A stretch of 64,000 nucleotides of DNA from Naegleria gruberi (Eukaryota), in the NCBI GenBank assembly GCA_000004985.1, contig GG738851.1; one strand, written 5' to 3'. Of the stretch, positions 10,877-63,788 are shown one piece after another. A program made the position numbers and the translations under genes. The stretch's first letter is position 1. Each line of letters starts with the position of its first letter. The notes below the pieces were generated by a model that made no database searches, was not told the DNA's origin, and saw nothing but the letters and a program-made list of their open reading frames with translations.

Positions 10877-12244
10877 ATGAAACGAACCTCTTCCGAAGAC
10901 AACTCTCTCGATACTTTTTCATCATCAAAAAAGCAAAAATCCAATCAATTATTGGAAATGAAACCTCTAAATATTCTCGTTTGTCGGTATGATCCATTTG
11001 TTTTGGGTCATGTATTCAAGTTTTGTTCGCCAATGGATTTGCCATCACTTGCTGTGGTGTGTAAGGATTGGCATGATTTGTACTTTTCCCGTGAGAAGAT
11101 CGTACTCATTCTGAAGGAGTGGGTCGATACTCAATGGAATAACAAGATTTGTTCAGGAAAATTGACATGGACTTGGTCTGTGGAATATAACCCAGAGAAT
11201 GAATATCATTCATTGGCATATTGGTTAAGATTGTTGAATGTATTGAAGGAAGTGAATATAATGATCACAGATGAGCAAGGGAAAAAAGATGATAATGATG
11301 AAGAAGAAGAAAACGAAGAGGAACATGATGACGAAGAGGAAGAACAAGACGTAGAGGAAGATGAAGAGGAAGATGACCAAGAAGATGAAGGAGAGGATGA
11401 AGAAAATGATGAACATGATGATACTGAGGATTTAAAGAAGATATCACATTCTGTAGAGTTTATTGAGATGGGCAATACGAAACTGTGTAAAATCACAACA
11501 TCCTCAAATAGATTTCTCCTAGTTTCGAATAATGGGAATATTATCCGTTTCAAAAGGAAGAAGAAGGAATTGTTATGCTCTTTTTATGGAGGTTTATCAT
11601 ATCCAAGTTTTGAAAATTGTAATTATAGAAGTGATTATTGGGTTTCCCTTGTTCCAGGTAAAAAGGGAATTTTAGTTTTGCAATTAAAACAAATGGTGAA
11701 ATATTTGGGATTTGATGATGAATATTTAGTAGCATGCAATCTCATTGACATTATTGGATTGAAAAAAGCGAAGGTTTCTAATTCAAAGTATACAGATTAC
11801 CCTTGGGATCAAGGAGAAGCTGACGGAATAATAGAATTTGTGCCTTGGGAAATTGTAACTGCGTGCACAACAAGTGATTATGACATATCGCATATTTGTG
11901 AATGTTTGGATGATCGATTTTTCAATAGTTTCGACTTATTCTGCAAGTTAATAGAAGTCAGTACTACCATGTACACTGAATCCATAATCAAGAATATTTC
12001 TCTCAAAGTTGACAGTGAATTTTTCAAGAATAGAGGGTTGTTGAAATATTGTCGTCAGGAAAGAAAATTATTCAAGTTATTGGATGAGTCATTGAGACAT
12101 GATAAGGAATTCCTTAAAGAGGCTCTAAGAGTCAACCCATCCATTCTCAAGTATCTTTTTAAAAAGGAATATACGGATATCATTGAAATTGATAGAGAGC
12201 TGATTTTAGACTGCTTGAATCGTTTAAGTGTAGCTCAGCAATAA
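10877..12244 (+). CDS. F-box-like protein with a long acidic (D/E) low-complexity stretch
   Basis: 455-codon ORF. The N-terminal LNILVCRYDPFVLGHVFKFCSPMDLPSLAVVCKDWHDL resembles an F-box. Residues around 135-180 are poly-D/E. Single exon. Confidence 0.6.
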   Translation: MKRTSSEDNSLDTFSSSKKQKSNQLLEMKPLNILVCRYDPFVLGHVFKFCSPMDLPSLAVVCKDWHDLYFSREKIVLILKEWVDTQWNNKICSGKLTWTWSVEYNPENEYHSLAYWLRLLNVLKEVNIMITDEQGKKDDNDEEEENEEEHDDEEEEQDVEEDEEEDDQEDEGEDEENDEHDDTEDLKKISHSVEFIEMGNTKLCKITTSSNRFLLVSNNGNIIRFKRKKKELLCSFYGGLSYPSFENCNYRSDYWVSLVPGKKGILVLQLKQMVKYLGFDDEYLVACNLIDIIGLKKAKVSNSKYTDYPWDQGEADGIIEFVPWEIVTACTTSDYDISHICECLDDRFFNSFDLFCKLIEVSTTMYTESIIKNISLKVDSEFFKNRGLLKYCRQERKLFKLLDESLRHDKEFLKEALRVNPSILKYLFKKEYTDIIEIDRELILDCLNRLSVAQQ

Positions 12245-12373
12245 AGGGATATTTACTGTATTTCCATGCTCGAATTACTGTTGTGGCTAAACATCTGGTT
12301 GTGGTGTGTTGAAATTTTTAAATTGAGATTTATTCCAATAATATAACAAAAAGCAGTGTGTTATTGCATTAAT

Positions 12374-15357
12374 TTACATGAGAAAGTTAATAATCGAAAT
12401 GATCAAGATTAAGATAAGTGAACATCTAACATTTGTAGATTGTCCAACAACAGGATTTGAAAGAGAAGATGTGGCATTGATAACTTCAGTAAATGGACTA
12501 CCAGTTGATGGAATGGTAGTTGGAGCAGATGGTTTCTCTGCTAAGGTAACATCCCCAGTAATGACCATACTGAATGCTTGTTTTCCCTTATTGGTGGATT
12601 TGGCTCCAACCTTGACTGTGAAATTACCTTGTGGTAAATTGGAAATTACAATACTTTCTGCAGTGTTGACCGTATCGAGAGTGTTGCCTGTGATGGCTCC
12701 ATTTCCATAATAATATTTCTTTCCAACAACTGCGACAACACTAATGTCGTTGATGAGTTTCTTGGTTTTTACAGAGCTAAGTGTATCAGCAGCAGATGGT
12801 AAATCGTACCAAGCAATGGTAACTTTCAGTGTGGTTACAGAATTGGCCTTCAAAGGAATGTCAACTTGTTGATTGGCATCAAGTGAATATCTATTGGCTA
12901 CGAGAATATTCTTAATTCTGTTCACACTTGCTGAATCAGTGTCAATCTTCAAGACATTTTGTAAATTGATTCTTCCAAAACCATTGTACTTGTTTGGTGA
13001 GTTGAATTGACTCAAATACAAATCAGTACCTCCAATTTGCACAAATCCCTTCATGACTTCTCCTGAGTGCAGAATCATGGCTTTGACCAAAGTCCCTGAC
13101 AAGGTTTGAGAAGGTGAACTATTGAAAATATTGTAATCGACTAATTTCTTCTTATTATCCTTTACCAAGTAGTGTCTTACCAAAGCTAATCAATTATTGA
13201 AACATTAAATGTAAATAATTAAATAAAATCAATGCCAACTACTTACCTGCTGCTCCAGAAACTGCAGGAGTTGCCATACTATATATGCATTGAAAAAGAA
13301 ATGTTAAATAACAAAGCTACACATCTCAAAAGCACTTACCTAGTTCCAGATTTTCCTACAGGATCACAAGAAGCAGTATTCAAAGAACTGATTGTACTGT
13401 AACCTGGTGCAGCAACTGAAAAGATTAATGTTAAGCTTTCAATTGTCAATGAGTGAAATACTTACTATCTGGTTTGATTCTATTATCATAGGTAGGTCCT
13501 TTTCCAGAAAAACTAGCCATATTCTCAAATTCAAAAACGGTATAATTTCTGCTTGTAAAGAACTGCTTGTAATAGGAAGATGGTGCATAGGAAGCGCCAA
13601 CTGTCAATGAATTCTTTGATGTGGATGGATCTCCCAAATTGGAATCAGTTGAGTATTCACCATCGTTACCAGCAGCCATTACAACAGTCACTTCATCATT
13701 TGAACTCAAAAAAGTGTCAACTCTATTACTGTCATATCCATAAAGATTACAATAGTGACAACATCTGGTACCAGTCAATGCCATACAAGAGGCATCAGTG
13801 ACAGCAGCACCTCGAGTATTATCAGAATTCAATTCATAGCATTTACAATCATAATCACACTAATAATGAGATTCAAGTTGACTGATTTTTCATATTATGA
13901 AAACTTACATCATAAGGATTACCACATCCCCAACTGTTACTTGAAATTTTAGATCCAGCATTGGTAAATGCATTAGACAAAACGGTATTCATATCACCAA
14001 TGTATAATCCTCCATTTGCTCCTGCTTGCACATCCACTGCATAGAGTTTGGCATCCTTGGCCACACCAACATTCTTATCCATGACTGTGGTTCCAAGTGT
14101 TTGTGGATATCCAGCAATGGTTCCTGCTACGTGAGTGCCATGACCTTCTCCATCTGTCAAATCACCATACTGTCCATTCTTATTATAGTAAACGACCTTT
14201 CTATAATTCAAATTAACACTTGTCTTGGTGCTTGGTTCACTACTGCCAGTAAAGAGACAATGTCCAAGAGTTATTCCAGTATCGATAACTGAAACAACCT
14301 CAGAGGCACCTGTAATTCCATTATTCCACATGTAGGTATAATTGGATCCACCTCCATTTTGAATCACTTGATTGGCTCCATAATTCTTAATCTCATGAAT
14401 ACGTTGACGAATGACCACATCTACAGAATCATCACTCGACAAGTAATTTAACAATTCCTGACCCATCTCACTTGACATGTCCTCTATTAATCCTTCAAGT
14501 TCTTGATTCATCTTGAAGAACTTTTGAATTTCTTCTCTTCTTTTCAATGATTGAACAATTGGAGAATCAAATTTTCCTTCTTTGATCAATTTCCAAACTC
14601 CGTAATCAAAGTTTGCGAGTGTGACTTGAACAGCATGAGTTTCACTTTGCCAATCGAGGTCGAATAGAGAGTTGGCTTGATCTCTGATGAATTCACGAAT
14701 GATAGTTTCGTCTTGTTGAGTGGAAAGTGCAGTTTCGGCAAGTTTCGAATTATGAATGGATTGTTGAATTTGTTGAATGTTTAGTTTGGACAAGGATCGA
14801 GTCATTTTTTGAGTATAACTGGAAAGGTACCAATTTCTCAATCTATTCATCGTTTGCAATCTTTCCATTTCGTTTAGTTTACTATCTAATACAATCTTCA
14901 AGCCACCAAGTTTCAACGAATCCAAACTAAGTTTCGTAAATGATTTCTTATCTGAATTCGAAACCTTCTTGATCCATTCAATATTCAATTTAGCAAAATT
15001 ATTATTCGAAAGCTCTTGAATCTGAAGTGTTGTGAGTCTTGTAGTAAAAACTGGAATGTCGGAATGAAATTGAAATTCCTTGTAATTGTCAACCTTCATC
15101 AATTGTGCCATTCTATTGAGAAAGTCATCTGTCATGATGGTATTATCACGTATTTTGACATGTACGAGCATTCTTTGGGTGTTTGAAATTGTTTGTGTGG
15201 TTTGTACATTTAATTTTGGAGTGTTGGAAACTGTTTCGAATAAATTTTCTACATGGTTGTATGTTTCCAATAGTTTGGAAGGTTCTTGTTGTAGTGAGAA
15301 TCCAATGCAACAAAGGAGTGCTGCAAAAAGTATCAATTTGGCAGCACCTAATGTCAT
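12374..15357 (-). CDS. subtilisin-like serine protease B (paralog of A); 5 exons
   Basis: Exons on the minus strand: 15357..13909 (1449 nt, the same length as exon 1 of A), 13859..13466, 13415..13340, 13278..13247 and 13185..12374. Donors are gtaagttt, gtaagtat, gtaagtgc and gtaagtag. Catalytic motifs are VIDTGITLGH, HGTHVAGTIAG, VVMAAGNDG and GTSMATPAVSGAA. The protein is about 920 aa. The C-terminus ILILIISIINFLM is hydrophobic. Confidence 0.8.
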
Positions 15358-15666: not shown

Positions 15667-18600
15667 CTAGTAAAACGATTTCCTACATAGTCCAACAACT
15701 ACGTTACAATCTTCTGGTAAATCTTCTCCTTCGTTTCGTAATTCTTCGTAATCCAATAATTGATTTTTAACTTCCACTAGGTCTCTGAATAATAGATCTG
15801 AACTGTTTGGATAGAGTGGATGGTCACTGGAATAGAGAACTTTAAAAGCAATAAAATTAACCCTTTCGTATGGTGAAATTTCTACCTCAACTGGTTTTCC
15901 TAAAAACAAAAATTGTCTATATAGTTTTTCAATTCTGTTTGAAATATCAGGAGGATATAATTCCACTTTGAGTAGCTGTTTTTCGAATCCCCTCCGAAAC
16001 CTGATGTTAGTGATATTAACTGAGTTGGCTGAATCCTCCCTTACTGGTTTGCACCATTTTTGTATTTGTAATTTTTTTTCCTCACGTCTCAAATCGTCCA
16101 ATAAAAGTAAATCCTTTGGTTGAACTGGATGGTAGGCGTCATGATAGAAATTTCTCGTAATTGGATTAAAACTACCAACTCTTTGAGTGCTTGGTTCTAT
16201 TGTTATCCATTGAATTCTATTCGATACGTCTGATTTATCCAAGGAATCGGTAGCATTGAGAATATAGTCCAAATCATTGAGAGAATGAATAAGGAATTTA
16301 CACTTATTTTTCTGCAAGGTTTTATCCAACATTTTAGGTGTGAACTTGTCGTACTTTAAAATAGTTAGATCCAGATAGTCTGATTTCTTTTCTACAATTT
16401 CTTTAGACAATTCCAAATGCTTGGATCTCAAAGATTCATCATTATAGTAGGAGCCAAGGAGCAACTTGGGATTTCTGCTTCTGTATTTAATTGTAATTAA
16501 AGAATTGAATTCAAGAAGAAACATACCTGCAAGCAAAGTCATAGAGAAGCAGTTTTGCCAATCCCTCAAGTTTGTCCTTCAAGTGTGAGCACACAACTCT
16601 TCTAGGATAATGCAAATATTGATTTTTTACCAAACTATGATGGTATCCTGGTACTGCACAAGAGAATCCTCTTTTAGCATACTGTAGATGAAAAAAATTA
16701 TTATATATACAAATGATCTCCTTAATCTCGTTGATATATGACTTACCTTAAACAGCCTATAAGTATAAGTAGTAGATTGCCTATCTACATCAACAAGATT
16801 TGTTCTGTGTGAAAGAGCTCTAATAGCTCTATCGCTGCACCAAACAGTTGATCCATCAAATCCTATTGTACAACTATCTACATCAAATCCCAAAAGTATT
16901 TCTAAAAGAATCATAAAATTAACCATAAAAAGCATAATTGAAATACATACCAGCTGGTGATTTGTATATACGAAGTACTATTTGAATAGGAGGTAATCTA
17001 TACATGTAAAAAGTAACAGCATATTTTGTTCGAACAACCAAAATGTCATCATTGATGAATTCTTGTTTTGCTTCACCGAAATATTGAGATACCTTACTTT
17101 TTTCTCCCCAAATTATATACTTTTCTTCTCTTACAAACCTAGTGTCTGATGATTTGAGAATGGACAAGTTTTGTTTAACAACCTGATAAATGTGCTTAAT
17201 TTTCAGTTCTGCTTCTTCCTCAGTCATGGCATAGAGGAATAAATCAATATCTGATTTTTTAAAGGCATGAGGAATATTAGGATCTGCTACTTCTCTCGCA
17301 TTTGGGACAGAATCTATGCTAGTTGTTGATAAGTTTTTAGAGTCTATTGTTTTGCGGCTATTATGATTGAAAAATTCAAATCTGTGCAAATGGTCATTCT
17401 CAACAAAAAAGCTCTTTCTGAAACTAGCTCCAACAACGTAAAAAGTATCAGAATCTTTGAATTCTTTATCCTTAAGTCCTTCGATATCGTTTTCAATTTT
17501 AACAGGTGTTGCTTGTGCAATAAATGCTTGATCTTCTACTGGAATTTCTTTCAAACAACATCCCAAGACACTACCTCCTAATTTAAATATTAAAAAAACA
17601 AATTGAGGAACAAGATTAACAATACTACGTACCTGCAACGAAAACACCAGACCAATCCATGCCATCCAACAATCTCTTAGTTAAATTCGAAAAATTATGT
17701 TTGAAGGTTTCCAAATTAGAAACAAGACATGTTTTTGGAGCTTGTTTGGAATAGGTTGTGACATCACATAAATTCAATAGCTTTGGACAATCAGAAAAAT
17801 TGATTTTAAACTTTCCCTTTGACTGAATCACATCTTTGACTTCAAAGAGAGGAGATAGGAACAGATAGGGAACTTTCAATAATTCATTATTCCTATCTTT
17901 CACAAATAATTCTCTTAATTTGTCTTCTCGTTCTTTGAGTCTAATGTTTTCTATAGAGAGCAATTCAATAGGATATCTGCATGGATCCAGATAATCCTTG
18001 GTCATAGTCTCCAATCCATAAAACTTGGCTTCCAAAAAGAGTTGACTTTTTCTTTCATTTGACATACTACGTGGGAAATGGTTGAATTTACCATGTGAAA
18101 TTAAGTATCCATGAATCAGTCTGAATAAATCCGGATTTCTATCAATGAAAATTTGTCCCTTATGATTGAGCTTGAAGGATGGTGATTGGATATATTTGGT
18201 AATAAGAAAATTGTCAAATTTTGCCAAAGAAGAAAAGGGTATGGAATAGAGCTGACCTGATACATTCACATTTACACTTGCATCTTGTGAGTTGTGATTA
18301 ATAAAATTTTGGTACTTTTCAGCAAGTTGCTTGGCAAGTAATTGCGAACTTTCTCTAGATTTTTCTGTTTGAGAATTCATATTTCTAATAGATTGATCCA
18401 ATAATTCTGTATTAACTCTATCTTTAACAATCTTGTCGCATTCACTTCTATCAGCATTGCACTCATTCAAATGATACTTGACAATCAAGTCAGCAATATA
18501 TTCCTTCAATTCGTTCAATTTGAAAAATTCTGCCTCCTTTTCAATATCTCTCAATTGATCATAATTTAACACATCAATGCCAATGGCATCAACTTGTCTA

Positions 18601-19013
18601 CTCCTCAAATATTCCAAAATAAACTCAAAAACATGTGGATTTCTATCTTTCAAATCCGAAACTTGCACCTCAGCAATTTCCTTCACCGTATTTCTGCATG
18701 TATGAAACTCTACATTGCCAACTTGTAAAATCATCATATCATCCTGCATGGTACGCAACCTATTAACTATCATCATTTCTTTTTCAGAATCTTCATCATC
18801 ACAACCATCATTAATATTATTATTTAATTTTCCCAAAATCCTTTCCGATTGCTGAATTTCTTCTTGATCATGAATATAAATTCTATGAAACCGATCGATC
18901 AATTCGCTCGTATAACTCTCTCCCGAAGGTTCTTGTTGTTCACCATTATCACGATCATCTGTTTTGAAATCTTGTATAGACTGCTGAGAATTCGCTTCAA
19001 GATGTCGCTTCAT
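15667..19013 (-). CDS. large protein with two KCTD/T1-type BTB domains followed by an uncharacterised C-terminal region; 5 exons
   Basis: Exons on the minus strand: 19013..17633, 17577..16951, 16901..16747, 16681..16527 and 16480..15667. Introns are 55, 49, 65 and 46 nt (gtacgtag, gtatgtat, gtaagtca, gtatgttt). BTB_2-like segments are ILQVGNVEFHTCRNTVKEI...FEFILEYLRS and VNVSGQLYSIPFSSLAKFDNF...IFIDRNPDLFRLIHGYL. The frame stays open through all junctions, giving about 1043 aa. Confidence 0.7.
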
Positions 19014-20896: not shown

Positions 20897-20967
20897 CTCG
20901 AGTGCCGGGAATTGAACCCGGGTCGCCAGAGTGACAGTCTGGAATGCTACCACTATACCACACCCGA
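20897..20967 (-). tRNA. tRNA-Asp (anticodon GTC)
   Basis: Reverse complement is TCGGGTG TG GTATAGTGGTAGCAT T CCAGA CTGTCAC TCTGG CGAC CCGGG TTCAATT CCCGG CACTCGA G. Cloverleaf with a 7-bp acceptor stem, TPsiC loop TTCAATT and anticodon loop CT-GTC-AC. It closely resembles eukaryotic tRNA-Asp. Confidence 0.85.
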
Positions 20968-25368: not shown

Positions 25369-25390
25369 TTTATAATAAATTTTGTAAAAA

Positions 25391-33499: not shown

Positions 33500-34663
33500 T
33501 CAACACAACATTGCCGGCTGCAACATTCGAATAGTTGTGTGTGGTGCAGTTGAAACTGTATTCGAAACTGTTGAAGAATCCTTGTTTCTCCCAACACTGT
33601 GATTCACCACTGTTGAACCAACACAAACCAGATGTTTCACCCTCGCCGATAACATCTTCATCTCTTCATATCCAATTTTACAGTAAGAAAGGTTTAAATT
33701 GATTAATTTGTTTAGGTGGAAACTTTCAGCAATGAATTGTGAGCTTTCTGGACCTAATTTACAAAAGGTCAGGTTTAAATTGGTCAGATTGGAAAGGTAG
33801 GGACTAGAAGATAATTGTTTTGTACCATTATCAGTAATTTCACAATGAGAAAGGTCTAGGTGAATTATATTCGAAAGGTTTCGGCTATTGGACAAGGATT
33901 TGATTCCTTCAAGACCAACTTGGGAGAAAGTTAGATCGAGATGAGTTAGTTGTGTAATGAATTGACTTTGGGAAAGTTGTTTGGCGCCTTCATCTCCTAC
34001 CAAACAGTTTCGTAAATTGAGAGAAAGTAGACGAAAGAAATTTGGAGATGAAGATAAATGATAGAGAGCTTCAGGAGTAAGAGAACAATCGCATAGATCC
34101 AATACTTTCAGATGGGAAAAGTTTGTTGATTGGCAAAGTAATTTGACTCCATCTACACCTATCAAACAACCAGAAAGAATTAGAGACGAAAGTAAACGAA
34201 TGTTTGGACTATCTGCAAGAATTTTGATTTCTTGAGAGGTTACTCTGCATCGAGTTAAATTCAAGTGTTGAAGAGATTTCATTGATGGAGAGGATGAAAT
34301 TAATTCCAAGGAGTTTCCAATAATTGGGACGAAACTGAAATCTAACCTTTGTATACGAAGACAAGTATCAAATCTTTCACTTTTCAAAGTTTCCTCGAAT
34401 ATACTTGCTGCTCTCCTTGTTTTCACTCTAATAGAGAATGGTACTTTCCAACAAGATTCGTACCATTGTTTCGAAATTAAACTACACTTTCCAATAATTA
34501 TTTCAGATGGAATATACTTCAATATTTCAATAATAATTTCATCAGGAATATCAATCAAAACCTGATAATTCCTCTGATAGCTCTTTGTTTGTTGTTGATC
34601 AACAACATGTTTCGAATAACATTGATCCATTTCGTATGATGTTTTCTTTACCAAGTGCATCAA
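33500..34663 (-). CDS. F-box / leucine-rich-repeat protein (RNI/cysteine-containing LRR type)
   Basis: 387-aa ORF. N-terminal F-box LIDIPDEIIIEILKYIPSEIIIGKCSLISKQWYESC, followed by about 10 LRRs of the form LxxLxLxxCxIxDxGxxxL. Confidence 0.75.
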   Translation of the reverse strand: MMHLVKKTSYEMDQCYSKHVVDQQQTKSYQRNYQVLIDIPDEIIIEILKYIPSEIIIGKCSLISKQWYESCWKVPFSIRVKTRRAASIFEETLKSERFDTCLRIQRLDFSFVPIIGNSLELISSSPSMKSLQHLNLTRCRVTSQEIKILADSPNIRLLSSLILSGCLIGVDGVKLLCQSTNFSHLKVLDLCDCSLTPEALYHLSSSPNFFRLLSLNLRNCLVGDEGAKQLSQSQFITQLTHLDLTFSQVGLEGIKSLSNSRNLSNIIHLDLSHCEITDNGTKQLSSSPYLSNLTNLNLTFCKLGPESSQFIAESFHLNKLINLNLSYCKIGYEEMKMLSARVKHLVCVGSTVVNHSVGRNKDSSTVSNTVSTAPHTTIRMLQPAMLC

Positions 34664-35835: not shown

Positions 35836-38523
35836 ATGAATGAACATGCAATTCTCACCACTCGTCTCGCCAACGCTCCCTACAAAATCTTCGACTGGGA
35901 TCAAGAAGAGCCTCCTCTCTCTCATGAAAAAGTCATTGAAAACCACTACACTGCTGATGAGATTATTGATGAAGGTATTTCTCCAAATGAATATGGAAGG
36001 GCAAAGTTTATTTCCGAAGCCTTGATGATTGAAAATAGTGGTGTAACAAGACCACCAACAAGTCATGAAGATGATGAACCAAAGTTTTGGAGGAGAAAGG
36101 ATTTGTTGATTCCTGGAAAATCAATTCAAATTTCTTCAAAGATTACGACGGTGCAATTGTTGAACGAGGAAGAGCCTATTGAAGAAAGTGATGATGATTA
36201 TGAGGAAGATGGTTTTGAAACAATGGTCAATCAAGATCGTTGTATTTATATTGGAAGCATACTGTCCGAAACAGAATGTAGTGATTTGATTGATTCCACA
36301 TCAAGATTGGGATATGAGAAAATTGATAAGGAATATCCAAAGGAATATCTTAATAATGAGAGAGTTTTGGTCAAGAGTAAGAAACTTGCAGATATAATTT
36401 GGTCTCGAATTGTTCCATTCTTGAAAAAGTCTGATATTGATGGTGTGAAACCTTATGGTTTTGATAATGATGGTTGTTGGGTTCCTTGTGGAATTAATGA
36501 AGTTTTAAGATTCAACAAGTATAGTCGTGGAAGTTTCTTTAAACCTCACACTGATGCTCAATTCGTTAGAAATGATAATGAAAAATCAATCTTTACAGTG
36601 TTGATCTATTTGAGCTCCTTTTCTTCAACTACAACCTTTTTCCAAAAGGTTGGAGAGAAGATTGAGGATAATAATATTTCTTTTGATTTCAAACAGTTGG
36701 CGTGCATCGACTCAAAAGAAGGAAGTGTTGGTAAGTTGAACAGATTATTGCTAAATAATAATTTAAAGCCATATTTAACCATAATCTCTATCATGCCGGC
36801 GAAAAAATGGCTTATGGATCAAAGTATGTTGTGAGAAGCGAAATTATCTTCAAGAGAATTGATAAGGATAGTATTTATAGTATGGATTATAGAAATAGTG
36901 AAGAATTCAAACGGGTAAAGAAACTCATTGATGATAGCTACGAGTTGGAACGTCAAGGTAATTTAACCCAATCCACCATCAAATATGTCCAAGCTATGGA
37001 CTTGTCCCACTCCATTCAAAAAAAATCAAATAGAAAATTGAGTTTTATTGAAGAAAATCTTCCTGAAGAGATATTCGTTCACATATTTAACTATTTAACA
37101 GATGAAGAGGTCTGTAAAAGTGTCATTCCTATCAATTCTGAAATTAATTCAATTGCTAGATATGAAAACATGTGGGAACAAAGATTTTCTAATAAGTGGG
37201 GATCTAACACATTGGAAAAGTCAATCCTTGATAGAGCTATTAGCGTTAAATACGGTGAAAATTATGAACCTACCAATGAAGAGAAGATTGTATTTCATAG
37301 TAAGGAAAATGAAATTATCAATCTTCTTCAAAAAGATTGGTATAATGCATTTTCAGCCAGATCAAATATGGAAAAATCTTTCAATGCTGTACTTTTAGAT
37401 CTTGGACAACATACTTACAAGTATGGATTAGCAAGTAATAATACATATTGGAGATCAATGACAGCTGTCGGTGAACCTAATCATCCTGACTTTTATTTAC
37501 CATCCTATGGATTTGACGACGTTCTAACAGGGGATAGATTTTTTAACGCTCAATACCATTGTGGATTGAAACCGTTCTTTAACTCTAAAGGAGTACCCAA
37601 GAAGAAGTTGTTCAAAATATTCCTTTATCAGCTCTATAAGGAAGATTTAAGAGTTAAATTACAAGAACATCCTCTTCTCATGGCTGTTCCTCCTCACTGG
37701 GATAAAGAATATTTGAAAAAGGTAGAACAGGTTGTGGTAAGTTTTCTATATTGAAAATTATATTTAAATTCATTGATAGTTTTCTTTAGGTATTCCAGCA
37801 GTTCACTTTGTAAACTCGTTCAAGTTACTTGCATTGTATTATCAAAAACCAACATCCTTAATTCTTAGTGCAACACCATATGGATCGACATGTGTACCAG
37901 TTGTAGATTGTGAGGTTAAGACTGCATGTATGGATATGAATGTGTTTAACATGTACGAGAAGAATAGGAATATGAATAAGGATATGAAATATTTTGAAAT
38001 GACTTTCTGGGCGAAGGTATCAGAATTTTTGAAAATTGCCCCTTGCAGTCCTAGCCAAGATCAACAAGAATTCAATGAATTTGCACAAAACGTTGAACCT
38101 TTCGAATGGATTCCACACCACATGGTTTCACCAGCCAATCAAAGAGCCAATATTTCGGAATTTTTCTATTCTCATGTATGGGAAAATGTACAAAAATCAA
38201 TTACCTTAATTCGTAATCATCAATCTCTTTCCAATATCGAAAAAGAGCTAATGCTAAACAATATTGTAATAGTTGGTGGATTCTCAGCATTGACAGGATT
38301 TAGAGAAAGAATCAAGAAGGACATTTTGGAATATCTTGGAAATGAATACTCTCCATCATTTACTTTTAGAGAGCATAAGGTTGATTATTCTGTCAGAAAA
38401 ATAGGTAACAAGGTCAGCATTGTTGGACAAGATATGGACGTAGTTGGAGGAGCTAGAATTGTTTCCAATCTCTCAAACTTTAGAGAAATTTGTAGTTACA
38501 AGCAAGTAGATAACAAGTGTTAA
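35836..38523 (+). CDS. fusion protein: prolyl-4-hydroxylase-like 2OG-Fe(II) oxygenase domain + F-box + complete actin-fold domain; 3 exons
   Basis: Exons: 35836 (ORF opens at 35749 with TTG; the first ATG is at 35836)..36730, 36769..37736 and 37825..38523. Introns are 38 and 88 nt (gtaagttg..tttaaag, gtaagttt..ttcaag). The P4Hc motifs span intron 1 in frame: RFNKYSRGSFFKPHTDA (HxD) ... SVA|LIFNHNLYHAGEKMAYGSKYVVRSE (second His plus basic residue). The F-box is LPEEIFVHIFNYLTDEEVCKSVIPINSEINSIARYENMWEQRF. Actin-fold blocks are LDLGQHTYKYGLASNN, LRVKLQEHPLLMAVPPHW, LSATPYGSTCVPVVDCEVKTACMD, IVIVGGFSALTGFRERIKKDI and DMDVVGGARIVSNLSNFRE. The protein is about 853 aa. Confidence 0.7.
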
Positions 38524-46864: not shown

Positions 46865-47872
46865 ATGTCCACCACACTCGTAGAGCTGTATCACTCTCCT
46901 GATATTCTTTCTCATGTTTTTTCTTTCCTTCCACTTGAAAGCATTGCCATGATGGAAAGATCATGCAAACATTTCGCAACCCTGTTGAGAGCCGACTACA
47001 TTGATAAGACAATATATTACCATTATATTTGTCAATTATTTAAATTAGATCCGAGCATCATGATGAAGGATGATGACACTTCATTATTACACATGTTTGA
47101 TCAGTTTTTGCAAGAAGAAAATTGCAGGGAGTTATTGATAGAGTTTTTTAGAGCTCCATTCATAGGAAATCGAGTTGAGAACAATGATCCTATTAATTCA
47201 TATTCAAATAAGGGAGGAGTTATTGATTTTAGTATTTATGTTCCTTGCAAATTATTGAGGGGATTATTAAGTCATTGTAAATATGATTTGGATGAAAATA
47301 TCAAGAGAACTTTACACAAATTTTTATTATTTGCTGGTGTTTCGTATTGGACTTTGGAAGTGGATTCGAAATTTCAATTAGCTAAATTGAATAGCAATGA
47401 GGTATTTACATTTAGAAAAAATCCGTACTCTTCCAATTCATTCCCATTCACACAATATTCAATGGGAAAGGGTCTGATAATGTTGTTGAATAATAATTTT
47501 AAAGAAATTGATCCAGAATTTTCACTTGCTATTTCACTTTCAGGTCCAGAGGATAGTGTAATCCTTTATAATGAACTTATTCGAAATGCTGAACCACCAG
47601 AAATGTGGGATGATATATTTTCACAATGTTCAAATCCTCCCTATTCCATGCAACCAGCAAATGAGGAAATTCAAGCACTAACCTCTCAATTATATAATGA
47701 TCATGATGGAAGTTGTGAACACTATTGTTGGAATGATTTTCTTCTTGAGGATTATTCTTCATGGTCAAGTTATTGGCTTGCTGGAGCTGAATGGTGGGGA
47801 TGTTACTCATTGACAACTTATGATTACAGTAAGCAACAATTTGTTATTGCAACTGCATCCACAACTGATTAA
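46865..47872 (+). CDS. F-box-like protein
   Basis: 335-aa ORF. N-terminal LVELYHSPDILSHVFSFLPLESIAMMERSCKHFATLL has F-box character. It is divergently arranged with the receptor gene, about 880 bp away. Confidence 0.55.
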   Translation: MSTTLVELYHSPDILSHVFSFLPLESIAMMERSCKHFATLLRADYIDKTIYYHYICQLFKLDPSIMMKDDDTSLLHMFDQFLQEENCRELLIEFFRAPFIGNRVENNDPINSYSNKGGVIDFSIYVPCKLLRGLLSHCKYDLDENIKRTLHKFLLFAGVSYWTLEVDSKFQLAKLNSNEVFTFRKNPYSSNSFPFTQYSMGKGLIMLLNNNFKEIDPEFSLAISLSGPEDSVILYNELIRNAEPPEMWDDIFSQCSNPPYSMQPANEEIQALTSQLYNDHDGSCEHYCWNDFLLEDYSSWSSYWLAGAEWWGCYSLTTYDYSKQQFVIATASTTD

Positions 47873-48863: not shown

Positions 48864-48981
48864 GACTACAGCACCACAGGTTCCCAAGTTGTCTCCAACC
48901 TCAGTACTGATGTGGCTCTACGATGCTTAACTTCTCAAATCAGACGGGATGAGGTGTATTCATCGTGATATGGCCGTAGCC
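48864..48981 (-). rRNA. 5S ribosomal RNA
   Basis: Minus-strand sequence GGCTACGGCCATATCACGATGAATACACCTCATCCCGTCTGATTTGAGAAGTTAAGCATCGTAGAGCCACATCAGTACTGAGGTTGGAGACAACTTGGGAACCTGTGGTGCTGTAGTC is followed by a T-run. It matches the eukaryotic 5S consensus blocks (CGGCCATA, CCCGTC.GAT, GAAGTTAAGC, AGTACT, GGGA.AC, GGTGCTGTAG), and helix I (GGCTAC/GTAGTC) pairs. Confidence 0.85.
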
Positions 48982-50956: not shown

Positions 50957-51493
50957 TTAGTTGATGAAAGCCTTACCAAGGAATTTACGCTTGCTGAATT
51001 GCATCCAGTACTTGTCAGCAACACCATCTTCCTTGAAAATTAATTTAGCCAAACGCAAACCTAATTCTTCCTTAGCTTGCCTCATGTAGGAATCCCATTG
51101 CTTCTTTTCATTGGTATCTCTTGGCTTATCGTAGAAAGCAATAAGAGCAAAGGAAGAATCACCTGGACCTGGGAGAGCTTCTTCACTCAATTGGAAGTAG
51201 AGTTTATCAGCATCGGCCTTCTTTGTTGTCTTCTTGTTTTCAGTGTGCTTCAACAAGAAGTGTGTGTACATGGTGAGGTAAATCAATGTACGATCAGCTG
51301 GGCTTTCAACTTGGTAAGATCTAAACAACATGTTAGACTTGAAAAACTTTAAAACTTCATCAATAATATCTTCCTTGTTTTCATCGAGTTCCTTTGGAGC
51401 AGGTCCCTTGACTTTAGTCTTCAATGGCAAGATTGCGGTACCACAATAAACTTCGCATTTAGCATCTTTGAATGAACTATGATAAGCTGGCAT
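50957..51493 (-). CDS. ARPC3: Arp2/3 complex subunit 3 (ARPC3, p21-Arc)
   Basis: 178-aa single-exon ORF. Similarity to ARPC3 orthologues runs along the whole length: MPAYHSS..., ILPLKTKVKGPAPKE, DIIDEVLKFFKSNMLFRSYQV, DRTLIYLTMY and ELGLRLAKLIF. Confidence 0.9.
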   Translation of the reverse strand: MPAYHSSFKDAKCEVYCGTAILPLKTKVKGPAPKELDENKEDIIDEVLKFFKSNMLFRSYQVESPADRTLIYLTMYTHFLLKHTENKKTTKKADADKLYFQLSEEALPGPGDSSFALIAFYDKPRDTNEKKQWDSYMRQAKEELGLRLAKLIFKEDGVADKYWMQFSKRKFLGKAFIN

Positions 51494-52796
51494 TTTGATG
51501 ATGATTTAAAAATTGATGATGAGTTTAATCGTTGTTGAATCTCAGGCAAGAAAAATTCCCTCTCAAAATTTTAATATTTTTTTTTGATGACTTGCTTGTT
51601 TTCCATCACAACTCGAAGGCTTGCTGATTGATGAATAAAAATCACCATCATCAGATTTTTCCAATCACCATTGAATTCTTTTGGTTATTAATGTTTGGAA
51701 AGAGGTAGTTTTGAGTGAATGGCTGATTGGAGGAGGCTTCTTGACAACATGTTGTCTACCTACAATGAGATTATCTTTGCTTTTGAGAATGAAATGGTTT
51801 AAATCAGGCTGGACCTCTCTGGGTTGACTTTGAAAAAATCAACACGAAAAAAAATTAAAAATTCTAAAATTTTGCATTTTCATTCAACAACTGCATATCC
51901 ATAATGAAGTTAGTGATGCATTATATCAAAATTGCAAGGGATGATCAAATTCTAAAAGATGCAGCAGCTTTTTTAGCCAAGCAGAGAAAACCAAGCTTGT
52001 CCAAAAAGAAGCAGTTTGCTCAACGGCGCTTGTTTTGATGGTGCGAGTTTTTCAATTCACCCAAAAAAAAACCACTCAAACCCTATCAGTCTGAACAAAC
52101 AAGTGTTGGAGCTTGTTGCTCTCTTTACTCTACTTATCCGACCCGAATATATTCATCATACCACCATCACTCTTTGAAAGAGAGCACACATTCTTGTAGT
52201 CATTGTGTATTCCGTATTACAACTTATCATCAAAGAGAGTTTTTTCCAGAATCCGCGCCCATTCTTTGCAAACTTACTTGGAGAATCCAAAAATAATCAT
52301 CACTGTAGAGCATTAAAGCAAAGAGAGCAGAAGAACACTTGATCTGTTAGAGTTCATAGAAGATCTTGCACAATTATCATCCAAAGTACTCCTCCGTTAT
52401 TTAAAGTAGTAGGTGCTGAGAGTGAATCACTACCCTGCTATTATTTCCAACATCAAGCGCTTGACTTGTTTCATATTTAAATTTTCATTACGTAAAAAAA
52501 AGCCAACATCGGCTTCCTTTGAATCCCAATCACCACCACGATCCTTTGTGTTGTTGGACAGCTGTTGCCTCTCACTATTTGCTGCTCCTTCATTCATTTC
52601 CTTACACTTCATTGTCCCCACTACTCATACATTCCTAAGCTTTTCCTACCCAAACCCTTGTATACAACATTGTACTCTAACAAGAACATTCAATTAATTG
52701 TACCATTTACTATTCATTCAACAAGCAATTAGAATACACCATTACTACTACAACTAATACCACCATCACTTGAATAACACCATCCGATAGTCAACA

Positions 52797-53669: not shown

Positions 53670-55351
53670 TTATTTGAGGCACATTCTAAGAGCAAATGCA
53701 TAAGCATGTGTCAAGGGTACCAAAGAACTGAACCAACTGTAATGACCAAGATAAGGTGAAAATGAAACAATTGTACAATTGACGAAAAGGAGTACAATAA
53801 AAATAAGGAACCAAATGTAAACTTCACCATCGTGTGGGAATACATATGAATTTTCCCTCAATGCCTTTAAAAAGTAGTGCAATACTACAAAGAACATAAT
53901 AATAAAGAACAACTCCAAAGGTATGGCTGAATACATGAGATAAAAACTGCTTGTTGTAAATTCGAGTCCAAATCCTAGCAAGATCACAAATGATTCCAAT
54001 AAAAATACAAGAAAATTGATACCAAAAGCATACCACAAAGTTAGTGGAGCTTTTGATCGATTCTCCTTAATAATACCAGTCGTAATGAAACATGTAGCTA
54101 TTGGAGCAGCAAAGCAAATTACCAAAACGTACAAGAATGGTACAATCAATACATAAAACCACGAGTAGGTATAAGTCCTAGAGGGAATTCCATCATGCAC
54201 GGGATTTTCAGTGAATGGTAACAAAACATTGACAAGGGCAAGAATGGCAATTATCATGAATGAAGCAACACCACCCATCGATAACAGAGCCGCGATCCAA
54301 AATCCTTCTCTAAATTCCTTCTCCTTCAAACAATCCAAAGTAATAAAGAATAGACCAGCAATTAAACAAATAGCAAACACAAACCACAAAGGTATGAATG
54401 AAAAAACTTGCCATCTCACACCAATAGCATTGTAAACCAATTGATCGACAGCATCTGTTATACCAGTCATGATAAAAAAGAGCAGGAATGAAAAATACAG
54501 AACTGATGAAGCACCAATAATAAATCTCCTAGTATTTGCTCTAAATTTCTCATGATATTTGGCCATAAATTCTCTAATTTTCTTTTCCTTTGCAATTCTT
54601 CTTCTTTCCTTATCTTGTTTCTTACCATGTTTAATGTGAAGTCCTCTCAAAGTTCCCACACTGATAATCTTGTTATCATTGTCAAATGTAACATAATCCT
54701 CCACTTTAATTATTTCAATAAATCCAAAAATTCAAAAATCAACAAACCTTTTGGTGGATGAGGTGGAGGTGGAATTGGTTTTCCATAAGGTTTCATATAA
54801 CTAATTCTCGTTCTCTCGCTCACATAGTAATTAATTTGTTCCGAATAAATCTTTTTAAACAGTTCAACACAATTCGAATACCACAACAAGTCATGCTTTG
54901 ATGATTCGTACCAATCTCTATTTACAAGTGAGGCCTCACTCAATGTTTTTTGATCTAGCCAGAGGAACATTTCTACCAAAACTTCTCCTGGAATATTATT
55001 CCATGTGTAATTTACATGAAATCCCGACAATATATTATCAGAATCGTTATTTTTCGAATGATTTGATCGAATGACAACTGAATTGTCCTTTCCAGTTGCT
55101 GATGGTGATTGAACAGCAACTACTACAGCATTATTTGAAATGGAAGCAGAAGGAGATGTTGAATTCATCATCTGCTGCTGCTCTTGTTGATTATCCAATC
55201 CGAGTGTTATCTGTTGATTATCAACAGCATCCTTATTTTCTTGTCCTTCTTCACCATCCATTTGTGGTGGTGCATTATCCTTCTGACTTTCCAAATCAAC
55301 AAATTGATCATCGGAAGTCATCTTGTCTAAAAAACCCAAATAATCAACCAA
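53670..55351 (-). CDS. F-box protein fused to a 7-helix integral membrane domain; 2 exons
   Basis: Exons on the minus strand: 55351..54748 and 54703..53670. The 44-nt intron is gtttgttg..aattaaag. The F-box is IPGEVLVEMFLWLDQKTLSEASLVNRDWYESSKHDLLW. It is followed by a PPPPHPP linker and then 7 hydrophobic segments. The protein is about 545 aa. Confidence 0.7.
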
Positions 55352-60256: not shown

Positions 60257-61399
60257 ATGTCTGATAGTGATAGGCCAGTTGCTTGTGTTGATATGGGTTC
60301 TTTGAACATTAGAGTAGGATGGGCAGGTGATGATTCTCCCCAAATAACCACTCGATCACTCATCGGATATCCAAAATACAAACCAGCAATGTTTGCCTCT
60401 GGACAAAAATATTCCTACATTGGTGATGAAGCAATTTCCAAGAGGGGAGTTTTATCTTATCGTCCAGTGATGCATCACGGAGAGAATGTTGATTGGGATC
60501 ATATGGAAATGCTATGGACGTACTTGTTTGAAAATGAGTTACGGGTTGGAATGAAAGATTTGTCCATTGTGAGTGCTGATGCAGTGCTTGGATGTCATAG
60601 TAGGAGGGAAAAGACAGCTCAGATTCTATTCGAAAATTTCAATGTTAGAGAGTGGTATTGTGGATTGGCTCCTGTGATGGCTTTGTATGGAACTGCAACA
60701 CCAAGTGGTTTGTCTGTTTGTATTGGAGATGGAGTGACACAATTAATTCCAATTGTTGGAGGGAGTGTTGTTTTGGAATCTGCAAAAAGAATTAATTTTG
60801 GAGGACGAAACATTACAAAATATCTGAACGAGTTGGTCATTTCTCGTGGCTATTATTTTGAAAATTCCAGTACTGAGCAGGATATTATCAGAGATGTCAA
60901 GGAAAAGTTCAGTTACACTACTATGGACTATTGGAGTGCATGTCAACAGGTAGTACAATATGGATCGAAGGTCAAGGAATACTTACTACCAGATGGAAAT
61001 GTACTCTCTTTTGGAAAGGAGCTATTTCAGTGTAATGAGGCATGGTTTGATCCAACTCTTGTTCAAAAGGAATATCCAGGTATTCATCAAATGATATATA
61101 ATTGTGTGGAATCGATGGACATTGATAACAAAAGAGAAATGTATGAGAATATTGTTTTGAGTGGAGCTGCCACTTTAACTGAAGGTTTCTGTCAAAGATT
61201 ACAATATGAGGTGCAACAATTAATTCCAGAAAGTGTCACGTGTAGAGTTGTTGCTGGAAACGAGCGACACAACAATGTATGGCTAGGATGCTCAGTGCTA
61301 GGAAGCATGACCAATTATTTATATGGAATGACCATGAAAAGTGAAGAATACGACGAGAATGGACCATCATGGGTCCACAGAAAATTTATGGATGCATAA
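60257..61399 (+). CDS. divergent actin-related protein
   Basis: 380-aa single-exon ORF. Actin-fold signatures: CVDMGSLNIRVGWAGDD, VLSYRPVMHHGENVDWDHMEMLW, ENIVLSGAATLTEGFCQRLQ, NVWLGCSVLGSMTNYL and PSWVHRKF. It is too divergent to assign to an Arp class by eye. Confidence 0.75.
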   Translation: MSDSDRPVACVDMGSLNIRVGWAGDDSPQITTRSLIGYPKYKPAMFASGQKYSYIGDEAISKRGVLSYRPVMHHGENVDWDHMEMLWTYLFENELRVGMKDLSIVSADAVLGCHSRREKTAQILFENFNVREWYCGLAPVMALYGTATPSGLSVCIGDGVTQLIPIVGGSVVLESAKRINFGGRNITKYLNELVISRGYYFENSSTEQDIIRDVKEKFSYTTMDYWSACQQVVQYGSKVKEYLLPDGNVLSFGKELFQCNEAWFDPTLVQKEYPGIHQMIYNCVESMDIDNKREMYENIVLSGAATLTEGFCQRLQYEVQQLIPESVTCRVVAGNERHNNVWLGCSVLGSMTNYLYGMTMKSEEYDENGPSWVHRKFMDA

Positions 61400-62030
61400 A
61401 TGATCATGAATACAAATCAATCTTATCAAATCATAGAATAACTGTTGTAGGTGGGTCGAAGTACAGCTCATATACATTTCCAGTTCTCATAAATCAGCAT
61501 GAAATCCATTAAGTTGAATGACATTAAGGCCCAATCAATATTGAAATGAAATTTGAAAAGATTCACATCTTTAAGCATGCTGAATTTTTACCACATTCCT
61601 TATATGATAATCAATTCCAAATTGAGAATATCAAAATCAAGGTCCATCAAAATGAACCATGGATTTTATTGACCACCACCCTTAATCCAAGTTTGAATCA
61701 TATTGAAATGACGCAAACTGAGGAATATGATGGAACCAACAATCAAGGAGTTAAGGCAAGATTTTGGAAATTGGAATGTTCAGATTGCCCTATCTCCATA
61801 TATACCAATTGAAACCAAGTACAAGACAATTATTCATCAGCGCAACAAGAAAAGCCAATTGACGAAAGTAGATTACTTGATTATGCTTAATATATTAAAA
61901 TAAATTGTAAGGATGTAGTCAACGATAAGGAATTTGTAACTCCAAAACCAATTTACCCATCAATAAGAAAGTTTCATTCTAAATAAATTACATTGTTATT
62001 ATTTGATGAATAATGTATTTACGACTGAGC

Positions 62031-63788
62031 TCAATTATTTTGGTAACATGTATCTAGACGTTGAATATCATCTGCAGTATAATCCAACTCTATCAAGGTA
62101 TCAAATCGTTCCTGTTCAGAGAACTTGGATAAATATTCGTACAATGGCTTTTCCATAGCCCTTTTGGAAGCATCCTTGAAAATTGGGAAGCAAGCTTTAC
62201 AAAAAGCAACAAGTTCTTCATCTAAAATTGTTAAAGTTAGAGTTCTATCCTCAAGCATGTTGATGGTATTTTCAGGGAATCCTAAACGATGTCCATATGA
62301 GAATAATTCTAACAAGTTACTTTCGTCCAATTGCTCAAACCTGGCAGAATAGATAAAATTACACAATTCTTGAACTACTGAAAAGTTGCATCCTTGAATT
62401 TCAAGTGTTGGAATATCTTCATGGAGAGCTGATTCTTTCATTCTTTCAGTTTCATCAAAATTAGAGTTGAGCAATACATTGAAAAACATTGATCTTTCTG
62501 AGAGGAAGTGTTTGTGGCATAATATAGCTTCTGTGGATTCAACAAAGAAAACCTCTTCCAGATAATTCTTAATTTTGATCTGAACATCACATAAACTTCG
62601 TTGTAATCTTTCAAACTTTGAAATGGCCTCATAGTTATTGTGGAATATACATCCTTTCAAGTCGTTTTTGAATTGTGAATCTGATTCCTTCATTGCAACT
62701 TTGATATCTTTTGTTAAATAATCCTTAAACATGTCCACAAGAGTATACATTTTCAAAGTTTCCATCCAATCACAATATTCTGTTCTTTGAACAAAAACTC
62801 CCAAATTTTCTAATTTCATAAACTTTTTTTGGTTTTCAGTCTTCAGCAAACAACCAGTATAAATCCATACCATTAAATTATCAAATTGACTTTTGGTCAA
62901 TCCAACTTGTCCCAAATCAACAACTTGCAATTCCTCTCTCTTTAAAAATTCCCTAATTTCTCTATCACTATCTGGAATTAAATTCTCAATTGCTTGCAAG
63001 TCATCCTGAGGTCTTTGATAATTTTTCTTTTCATTGGCAATTTCCATTTGTTTCTTAATTTCCTTAATTTTCTTATTGTAAACATCCACCATCAATACTT
63101 CCTTATTCATCGAATCAAAATATTTCTTAATTTCTCTATTTGTTTTCAAATCAACAACTTTCAAATCTTCACTTGTCAAAATGGTGCTCACTTTCATTGG
63201 AATAGGTCTTTCCTTATTCACCAAAGCAAAATACAAGAGCATTGGCCATCTCTTCAAAATAATCCACCAATTACAATAGTAAATAGTATCTTCCTCATCT
63301 TTTCCAAATCTAATTCTAATAGTCAAATCACATTCATCTGGTTTCTCAGTTCCATAAATCACTCTCTTGGCCATTTTCATCATGAATGGATCCAACGATT
63401 TGAACTGATCTTGCTCATACATTTGCTCAATTTCTTCATCTTCCTCTTCTTCAGTTTTCTTTTGTGCTTTCTTTACTTGTGTTGGTCCTCCATACTTATT
63501 ATAAACCTTCAATAAATGTCTCACTGGCAACGACAAGGCATTCCAATAGCAACGAGCAAACTTATCATCACGAGCCCCCAAATCCGACAAATACTTGACC
63601 ACCTGTAAATGTCCACACAAACAAGCATAATAGAGAGGTGTATTTCCATACCTATCGGGTCTATCCAAGTCTGATGTTTTAATAATGGATCGAATCTTGT
63701 TCAAATCGCCCACTTTACAAAATGAATAGATATCACTCATGGGAGAGAGAGGTGAACCCAAACCACTGGTTTTGTGTTGTTGAAGCAT
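62031..63788 (-). CDS. ankyrin-repeat + double BTB/POZ protein (ABTB1/BPOZ-like)
   Basis: 585-aa ORF. N-terminal ANK repeats (GNTPLYYACLCGHLQVVKYL). Two BTB-like segments: CDLTIRIRFGKDEEDTIYYCNWWIILKRWPMLLYF and CDVQIKIKNYLEEVFFVESTEAILCHKHFLSERSMFFNVLL. Confidence 0.7.
   Translation of the reverse strand: MLQQHKTSGLGSPLSPMSDIYSFCKVGDLNKIRSIIKTSDLDRPDRYGNTPLYYACLCGHLQVVKYLSDLGARDDKFARCYWNALSLPVRHLLKVYNKYGGPTQVKKAQKKTEEEEDEEIEQMYEQDQFKSLDPFMMKMAKRVIYGTEKPDECDLTIRIRFGKDEEDTIYYCNWWIILKRWPMLLYFALVNKERPIPMKVSTILTSEDLKVVDLKTNREIKKYFDSMNKEVLMVDVYNKKIKEIKKQMEIANEKKNYQRPQDDLQAIENLIPDSDREIREFLKREELQVVDLGQVGLTKSQFDNLMVWIYTGCLLKTENQKKFMKLENLGVFVQRTEYCDWMETLKMYTLVDMFKDYLTKDIKVAMKESDSQFKNDLKGCIFHNNYEAISKFERLQRSLCDVQIKIKNYLEEVFFVESTEAILCHKHFLSERSMFFNVLLNSNFDETERMKESALHEDIPTLEIQGCNFSVVQELCNFIYSARFEQLDESNLLELFSYGHRLGFPENTINMLEDRTLTLTILDEELVAFCKACFPIFKDASKRAMEKPLYEYLSKFSEQERFDTLIELDYTADDIQRLDTCYQNN

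Follow-up and report, generated by a model that had tools for sequence, protein, structure and literature searches.

A loose local excess of F-box and BTB genes on a Naegleria gruberi scaffold

Results

The window, the whole 64,000-nucleotide stretch of DNA analysed here, is part of a 693,645-bp scaffold of Naegleria gruberi NEG-M. Its positions 10877-63788 (53 kb) contain about 22 genes, seven of which encode F-box (five) or BTB (two) proteins, on both strands:

10877..12244, plus strand: F-box gene; single exon; EFC48271 / D2V3W8, 455 aa; F-box at aa 42-68, acidic tract at about aa 128-185, C-terminal DUF4116
15667..19013, minus strand: double BTB_2 gene; five exons (introns 17632-17578, 16950-16902, 16746-16682 and 16526-16481); 1043-aa spliced model
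33500..34663 (end also given as 34660), minus strand: F-box plus RNI-type LRR gene, FBXL-like, by Pfam
35836..38523, plus strand: 2OG-Fe(II) oxygenase/F-box/actin gene; three exons (introns 36731-36768 and 37737-37779); EFC48279 / D2V3X9, 868 aa
46865..47872, plus strand: F-box gene; single exon; EFC48280 / D2V3Y1, 335 aa
53670..55321 (ORF to 55351), minus strand: F-box/7-TM gene; two exons, intron 54747-54704 (44 nt); 535-aa model
62031..63788, minus strand: ankyrin plus BTB gene; single exon; EFC48431 / D2V3Y6, 585 aa, identical to the public protein

An earlier, sequence-only reading of this DNA had counted seven adaptor genes among about 33. The seven stand, while a recount brings the total down to about 22 for the span and 27-28 for the whole window; the count of 33 probably came from exon-sized ORFs. 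A profile search of the 118 remaining ORFs of 45 aa or longer found no further F-box or BTB protein. Exact NCBI/UniProt matches were obtained for 7 of 10 ORFs in one comparison and for 2 of 10 sequences in another. Between the seven lie about 15 unrelated genes, of housekeeping, signalling and protease types, including a subtilase, AP-mu, an amidohydrolase, a sugar transporter, an NHL-GPS-RGS receptor, ARPC3, a 5-oxoprolinase and an Arp. Actin-related items found near one another are ARPC3 (50957-51493), the Arp (60257-61399) and the F-box-actin fusion. The ORF at 60257-61399 is 100% identical to NAEGRDRAFT_46504, and the window genes carry spliceosomal GT-AG introns of 38-65 nt. A giant-virus origin, considered because GC is low and ankyrin, BTB and F-box genes abound, was dropped because of these introns and the 100% N. 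gruberi match.

The five F-box signatures initially read from the sequence differ in strength against the Pfam profiles PF00646 (gathering score 20.5) and PF12937 (gathering score 24.3): the genes at 10877-12244, 33500-34663 and 53670-55351 reach a gathering score, and the other two fall slightly below and are backed by homologues or by UniProt naming. The product of 10877..12244 scores 26.2 bits with PF00646 and 30.4 bits with DUF4116, and is identical to D2V3W8, named 'F-box domain-containing protein' in UniProt. That of 33500..34663 (PF00646 31.2 bits, PF12937 28.5 bits, LRR_6 63.7 bits) resembles FBXL proteins such as Skp2, in which an N-terminal F-box is likewise followed by RNI-type LRR_6 repeats, a likeness of architecture. 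The 46865..47872 protein has its F-box at the N-terminus (aa 12-51), scoring 21.6 bits with PF12937 as a whole protein, 24.2 bits as an isolated N-terminus, and 17.7-19.7 bits with PF00646. Its entry D2V3Y1 bears the same UniProt name; the remainder of the protein has no recognisable domain, and a sequence search of the PDB returned no relative at E<=1.

In the gene at 53670..55351, the F-box (aa 107-151; PF12937 31.5-32.4 bits) precedes seven hydrophobic segments predicted to be transmembrane helices, and the single intron falls between the exon for the F-box and that for the TM helices. Homologues in N. fowleri (512 aa, 65% identical, 'F-box domain-containing' in UniProt) and Willaertia magna (496 aa) span the predicted exon junction without a break. 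The only N. gruberi record that we found for this gene is an ENA ORF call (P0034), 99% identical, which ends inside the intron, and the public N. gruberi model may therefore be truncated.

The gene at 35836..38523, whose spliced model is identical to the public protein, encodes in order a prolyl-4-hydroxylase-like (P4H-like) 2OG-Fe(II) oxygenase, which the earlier description had missed, a divergent F-box (nt ~37056-37181) and a divergent actin fold. Pfam gives 48.9 bits for Actin and 26.9 bits for 2OG-FeII_Oxy_3 (gathering score 27). The F-box, located within a large exon and not on one of its own, scores 18.6-22.8 bits with PF12937, where the match covers the first half of the model alone; six of ten homologues bear a precomputed PF12937 or PF00646 match. 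Three Naegleria species, Willaertia and Acrasis have homologues, whose alignment retains the motifs HxD...H...K and LPxE...W. An AF2 model (pLDDT 68) aligns with PDB actins at TM 0.73-0.81 in Foldseek, a match that speaks for the actin fold only, since actin dominates a search with the whole model.

The succession of F-box and actin-fold domain seen here by Pfam and Foldseek is also that of Arabidopsis SUSA2/ARP8, which carries both on one polypeptide and binds the Skp1 homologue ASK1 (PMC7562919). The heterolobosean protein differs by its additional N-terminal oxygenase with HxD...H...K intact. [quoted passage not shown]

Both BTB genes exceed the BTB gathering score, as expected from their initial description as BTB-adaptor-type genes, and they fall into two separate BTB subfamilies, PF02214 and PF00651. 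The spliced model of 15667..19013, built from GT-AG introns that restore the frame, has no exact match among public models. It contains BTB_2 domains of the KCTD/T1 type at about aa 93-185 and aa 247-337, in agreement with the proposed double KCTD-type BTB gene; the profile match, split over two stretches, reaches 59.7 bits, and 56.9 bits when the spliced model is searched. The C-terminal half of about 600 aa has no Pfam match and displays the Pol-beta-nucleotidyltransferase-like motifs GGS...DIDLF...GFDVD. The gene shares the BTB_2 profile and weak PDB matches to the KCTD16 BTB with the KCTD family of T1-type BTB Cul3 adaptors, in which one BTB is followed by a short C-terminal domain, unlike the two tandem BTB_2 domains and long nucleotidyltransferase-like half found here. 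In K+ channels, BTB_2 domains also act as pure tetramerisation modules, and such domains can be oligomerisation modules only.

For 62031..63788, the ankyrin repeats (about aa 22-74; Ank_4 32.5 bits) and one BTB (aa 395-506; 42.1 bits) were recovered, whereas the second BTB of the proposed 'ANK plus double-BTB' gene, at about aa 150-330, has no profile support. Within aa 120-353, a profile search detected no BTB even at E<=10, nor is there internal similarity of this segment to the profile-supported BTB; a single-sequence AF2 model (pLDDT 35) is unusable. By eye, aa 150-330 display BTB-like motifs split by an insertion. Ankyrin repeats with two BTB domains make up the architecture of ABTB1/BPOZ. 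The Naegleria protein resembles it in architecture, with N-terminal ankyrin and C-terminal BTB, and differs in that its first BTB is without profile or model support.

An all-versus-all BLASTP of the seven proteins revealed about 30% identity over 30-58 residues of the F-box motif and nothing more, the best E-value being 0.002 over 33 residues, again confined to the F-box. The full-length paralogy expected of a tandem adaptor array is absent, which confirms the view that these genes are neither close paralogs nor one tandem array. No 8-mer or 9-mer is common to the upstream sequences of the seven, A/T runs excepted.

One neighbour pair is conserved in N. lovaniensis. There, at L004 8914-9921, an F-box-LRR gene adjoins a P4H-actin homologue (P0015, with no F-box match on record) in the same divergent arrangement as 33500..34663 and 35836..38523. 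A second pair, an F-box-like gene next to a member of the P4H-F-box-actin family, occurs in N. lovaniensis (L001) and N. fowleri (L006), at apparently corresponding loci that have flanking gene families in common. Around the P4H-F-box-actin gene, wider synteny of the cluster with loci L001-L006 was limited to NHL-repeat cross-hits.

As a background we sampled 95 neighbour genes at eight heterolobosean loci in N. lovaniensis, N. fowleri, Willaertia and Acrasis. Among these genes, which come from other species, are anchored on homologues of one window F-box gene and were scored by precomputed Pfam hits, there are 3 F-box and 0 BTB genes (3.2%, 95% upper bound 9%). The 53-kb span is roughly 8-10 times denser than this sample (Fisher's test against 3/95: p 0.003 for 6/26 and 0.001 for 6/21), in keeping with the local enrichment proposed at the outset; in this proxy test on other heterolobosean loci, the density of the window was not that of the genome at large. 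With independent placement at a background of 3-5%, the probability of 7 in 22-27 genes is about 3e-6 to 3e-4. The 41-Mb genome of N. gruberi corresponds to roughly 640 windows, and because the probability is small even allowing for that number, a real clustering process has to be kept in view.

Discussion

We interpret the locus as a local excess of independent adaptor genes that is real but loose, and nothing indicates that these genes function jointly. The best reading, which we favour with restrained confidence, is that seven independent genes from two large, fast-shuffling families lie among unrelated genes on one scaffold, and that their concentration is the extreme end of the uneven, over-dispersed spread of a family expanded genome-wide. 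Small conserved neighbour pairs would add to the concentration, and the post-hoc choice of the window would sharpen it. Domain content, absent paralogy and local excess form the demonstrated part of this explanation. Going by what is known of the two families, each F-box protein would dock via its F-box on Skp1-Cul1-Rbx1, and each BTB protein would oligomerise and dock on Cul3-Rbx1; Skp1 or Cul3 binding of the seven is putative. The variable part (LRR, DUF4116, 7-TM anchor, P4H-like oxygenase with actin fold, ankyrin or other domain) would choose what is ubiquitylated or where.

Such a large and varied repertoire of CRL receptors is what lineage-specific F-box/BTB expansions have produced in plants, nematodes, dictyostelids and N. 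gruberi itself, according to a published supplement (PMC4327156), and there as here the F-box is joined to LRRs or other binding domains and BTB to ankyrin. Plant and nematode clusters consist of tandem, recognisable paralogs, whereas the window genes resemble each other in the motif only and have unrelated genes between them.

The concentration could instead be what is left of an ancient local birth-and-death process, in which F-box segments were duplicated locally and shuffling of domains or exons fused them to differing neighbours. On this view the F-box genes would be distant positional paralogs, their short domains too diverged to be recognised as such. The density is far over background, and tandem arrays are the rule for F-box genes in plants and nematodes. 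The F-box-LRR gene beside the P4H-actin gene, in N. gruberi as in N. lovaniensis, the second F-box pair shared by N. lovaniensis and N. fowleri, the intron that parts F-box and TM exons in the F-box/7-TM gene, and the fact that the top cross-matches among the seven are F-box segments all point the same way. However, no pair is significantly similar, the best E-value being that over 33 residues; the F-box of the P4H-actin gene is inside a large exon, the two BTB genes stem from differing subfamilies, synteny is limited to one pair, and a 45-residue domain is too short to resolve such a tree. We therefore consider this origin somewhat unlikely.

A bolder version, to which we give a clearly smaller chance, is an F-box 'nursery' whose modules spread within their neighbourhood and become joined to adjacent genes, creating new kinds of receptors. 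If true, these new receptors would be a membrane-embedded 7-TM F-box protein and an F-box protein with its own prolyl-hydroxylase-like oxygenase and actin fold, the latter of which could link O2-dependent hydroxylation, whether Skp1 or a substrate is hydroxylated, directly to SCF assembly. The nursery would have left its trace in the neighbour pairs seen again in further Naegleria species.

Compared with the over-dispersed tail that we favour, the initial proposal, read as taking the window for typical of a genome uniformly very rich in F-box and BTB genes, without any local excess, fares poorly. Its first half, the expansion, is in print: the supplement to Grau-Bove et al. 2015 (PMC4327156) describes genome-wide F-box/BTB diversification in N. 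gruberi, and the varied architectures of the seven are to be expected under a broad expansion. The statement is qualitative, and our literature search found no published F-box/BTB count for N. gruberi. Its second half, a typical window, requires that 10-16% of genes genome-wide be F-box or BTB before 7 in 22-33 genes would have P=0.05. Yet the same supplement (PMC4327156) gives the whole ubiquitin toolkit as about 5% of genes in Arabidopsis, whose systems it describes as the richest, and as about 2% in unicellular algae; the related genomes sampled here yield 3.2% with an upper bound of 9%. Because of this required fraction and the 3 of 95 genes in the sampled loci, the published expansion cannot by itself explain the density of the window, and we judge the typical-sample view improbable. 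The initial interpretation is partly supported: the window is locally richer than the genome-wide expansion alone would make it, an excess that may result from real clustering or from choosing an extreme window post hoc.

A functional, co-regulated 'degradation island' with products in one pathway is very improbable: proximity and two actin-related themes (ARPC3 and Arp) near the F-box-actin fusion are all that speaks for it, against the use of both strands, the unrelated genes in between, the missing common upstream motif and an arrangement kept for one pair only in N. lovaniensis, and to our knowledge eukaryotic CRL adaptors are not organised in such islands.

F-box and BTB families are ordinary and catalogued, the genes are in public databases and the diversification in N. 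gruberi is known, and the cluster as such is of little importance. If clustering without recent paralogy were to hold for the whole genome, it would point to a local domain-shuffling mechanism in a deep-branching eukaryote. What the window does provide are clean examples of two unusual receptor architectures found across Heterolobosea, P4H-like/F-box/actin and F-box/7-TM, the first of which contradicts the published plant-only statement on the F-box and actin combination (PMC7562919).

Gene content of the window

The window (GC ~34%) contains long ORFs, some of them split into adjacent frames, the parts being joined by GT-AG introns of only 38-65 nt. Nine of its proteins have identical counterparts in NCBI/UniProt, all from a single 693,645-bp scaffold of strain NEG-M, and the ORF at 60257-61399 shows 100% identity to NAEGRDRAFT_46504 of Naegleria gruberi; the window is eukaryotic nuclear DNA, a viral or prokaryotic origin being excluded. 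Pfam was run over ORFs of at least 150 aa, the spliced models and the 118 remaining stop-to-stop ORFs (45 aa or longer); this gives 27-28 genes, ~22 of them within 10877-63788. The earlier sequence-only reading had counted about 33, probably by taking exon-sized ORFs as genes. Seven are adaptor genes:

10877-12244, F-box gene (PF00646, 26.2 bits, passes gathering score) with DUF4116 and an acidic tract
15667-19013, BTB_2 gene
33500-34663, F-box-LRR gene (PF00646, 31.2 bits, passes gathering score; LRR_6, 63.7 bits)
35836-38523 (+), P4H-like/F-box/actin gene
46865-47872, F-box gene
53670-55351, F-box/7-TM gene (PF12937, 32.4 bits, passes gathering score)
62031-63788, ankyrin-BTB gene

The other features are:

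3238-6172 (-) and 12374-15357 (-), two subtilase (Peptidase_S8) genes, both split
7079-10548 (+), NHL/EGF-repeat ORFs between the subtilase copies
20897-20967 (-), tRNA-Asp(GTC), upstream of the DUF4504 gene
34989-35062 (-), tRNA-Val(AAC), between the divergently transcribed F-box-LRR and P4H-like/F-box/actin genes
39343-45981 (-), NHL-GPS-7TM-RGS receptor, 2,212 aa, single exon
50957-51493, ARPC3
60257-61399, actin-related protein (Arp)
DUF4139, MAPEG, methyltransferase, DUF4504, class II aldolase, AP-mu, rhodanese, amidohydrolase, sugar transporter and 5-oxoprolinase genes, a small CHZ-like ORF and three proteins without domains

The subtilase copies are identical in ORF layout and Pfam match positions, which suggests that the pair arose by local duplication. 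The product of 39343-45981 combines NHL propeller repeats with a GPS motif, a multi-TM stretch and, at the C-terminus, an RGS domain, and is predicted to be an adhesion-GPCR-like receptor with RGS built in. Two stretches of 1.3-1.9 kb (47900-49750 and 51500-52790), unusually empty against their gene-dense surroundings, have no ORF of at least 100 aa and no Pfam match in any frame; genes with many introns or non-coding RNA genes may reside there. ARPC3, the F-box-actin fusion and the divergent Arp (nearest relatives outside N. gruberi only ~37% identical), three genes of the actin system, fall within a span of 26 kb, a proximity that is probably coincidence.

Five F-box genes and two BTB genes

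Of the five F-box genes named in the sequence-only reading, three are upheld above Pfam gathering scores; the other two, at lower scores, are probable, with homologue or UniProt backing. Aligned with Skp2 and with two neighbour genes of N. lovaniensis, the five motifs display the usual LPxEIl..If.fL...l...VcK.W pattern. The isolated N-terminus of 46865-47872 scores 24.2 bits (cut-off 24.3), and the same residues are matched by a second F-box model; this product and that of 10877-12244 already bear the UniProt name "F-box domain-containing protein". The weakest F-box is that of 35836-38523 (18.6-22.8 bits), where the match covers the first half of the model only. Its LPxE...W pattern is conserved throughout the family alignment, PF12937 or PF00646 is precomputed on 6 of 10 homologues, and the AlphaFold model places a helical bundle there (pLDDT ~70).

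The F-box/7-TM fusion (53670-55321, minus strand), with seven hydrophobic segments downstream of the F-box, rests on a 44-nt intron (54747-54704). Proteins of N. fowleri (512 aa, 65% identical) and Willaertia magna (496 aa) read continuously through this junction, whereas the sole N. gruberi-like record found, the ENA ORF call P0034, terminates within the intron, so the public N. gruberi model may be truncated. Relatives are few, only 15 among 1.84 billion representatives.

The two BTB genes are assigned to different Pfam families. The gene at 15667-19013, modelled with five exons, has two BTB_2 domains (59.7 bits) with weak PDB matches to KCTD16. Its C-terminal half (15667-17577, minus strand; ~600 aa after the BTB_2 domains) has no Pfam match; by eye, its motifs VAGGSVLG ... 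SDIDLFLY ... GFDVDSC recall Pol-beta-type nucleotidyltransferases, a combination that, if real, would be unusual. The gene at 62031-63788, previously read as ankyrin plus double BTB, keeps the ankyrin repeats but a single BTB, at 42.1 bits. The candidate first BTB (aa ~150-330) looks BTB-like by eye, but the double BTB is unproven, since no profile supports this region, it shows no similarity to the second BTB within the protein, and its structure model is not usable.

A heterolobosean P4H-like/F-box/actin family

The spliced 35836-38523 model, identical to the public protein D2V3X9, encodes a 2OG-Fe(II) oxygenase domain (26.9 bits, gathering score 27; HxD...H...K invariant) followed by an F-box and, C-terminal to it, an actin fold (48.9 bits; TM 0.73-0.81 to actins in Foldseek). 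Members occur in N. gruberi, N. lovaniensis (five copies), N. fowleri, Willaertia and Acrasis, the last with P4H+F-box and actin called as two adjoining genes. Judged from sequence, the fusion is a conserved heterolobosean family with its catalytic HxD...H...K intact. The second N. gruberi copy (P0011, on a 339-kb scaffold) has the same length, 868 aa, and aligns in three pieces corresponding to the three exons of the window gene (71-87% identity), which points to either a divergent haplotype or a segmental duplication of fairly recent date. Arabidopsis SUSA2/ARP8 likewise joins F-box and actin in one protein, an architecture described in Nature Communications as restricted to plants (PMC7562919); the predicted heterolobosean family contradicts that statement. 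With oxygenase and F-box in one protein, a link to Skp1 prolyl hydroxylation may be considered.

Origin of the gathering

An all-against-all BLASTP of the seven proteins recovered the F-box motif only (best match E=0.002, 30% identity over 33 residues), in agreement with the earlier view that this is not one tandem array, and by this comparison the seven genes are not paralogs. Old local duplication followed by shuffling is a reasonable rival, although we consider it the less probable origin.

N. gruberi is among the lineages with BTB and F-box diversification; the whole ubiquitin toolkit makes up ~5% of genes in Arabidopsis, described as richest, and ~2% in unicellular algae (Grau-Bove et al., PMC4327156). 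No genome-wide F-box/BTB counts for N. gruberi were found in the published literature. Seven adaptors in 22-33 genes would require a genome fraction of 10-16% at P=0.05 (binomial); at a 3-5% background, P is ~3e-6 to 1e-3. As background we took 95 annotated genes lying no more than 10 kb from P4H-like/F-box/actin homologues, at eight loci (five in N. lovaniensis, one each in N. fowleri, Willaertia and Acrasis): two have an F-box Pfam match, one more is F-box-LRR by eye, and none is BTB. In the window, 6 of the 21-26 genes other than this anchor are adaptors (Fisher's exact p 0.001-0.003 against a background from other species, a single anchor family and precomputed Pfam matches, the window having been picked after inspection). 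We conclude that the density exceeds that of genome-wide expansion alone, roughly 8-10 fold over the sampled background. The proposed expansion agrees with published work, but this does not look like a typical window of it (6/21-26 vs 3/95), and a uniformly high density throughout the genome is unlikely.

Small F-box neighbour pairs do recur, since an F-box-like gene adjoins the family member at one N. lovaniensis locus and again in N. fowleri, with shared flanking gene families. At another N. lovaniensis locus, an F-box-LRR gene lies head-to-head with the member P0015 (no F-box match on record), exactly as in the window; no other window genes were found within 10 kb. The seven genes lie on both strands with unrelated genes in between, no upstream 8-mer or 9-mer common to them was found, and there is no sign that they are regulated or act together; a functional island is very improbable.

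The best-supported reading is of seven independent receptor genes, concentrated here by what would be the uneven spread of an expanded family over the genome; from their families, the F-box products would serve as independent SCF-type substrate receptors and the BTB products as Cul3-type. The families, their expansion in N. gruberi and most gene models are already public, and the local excess and two unusual architectures (P4H-like/F-box/actin and F-box/7-TM) are minor additions to this known picture.
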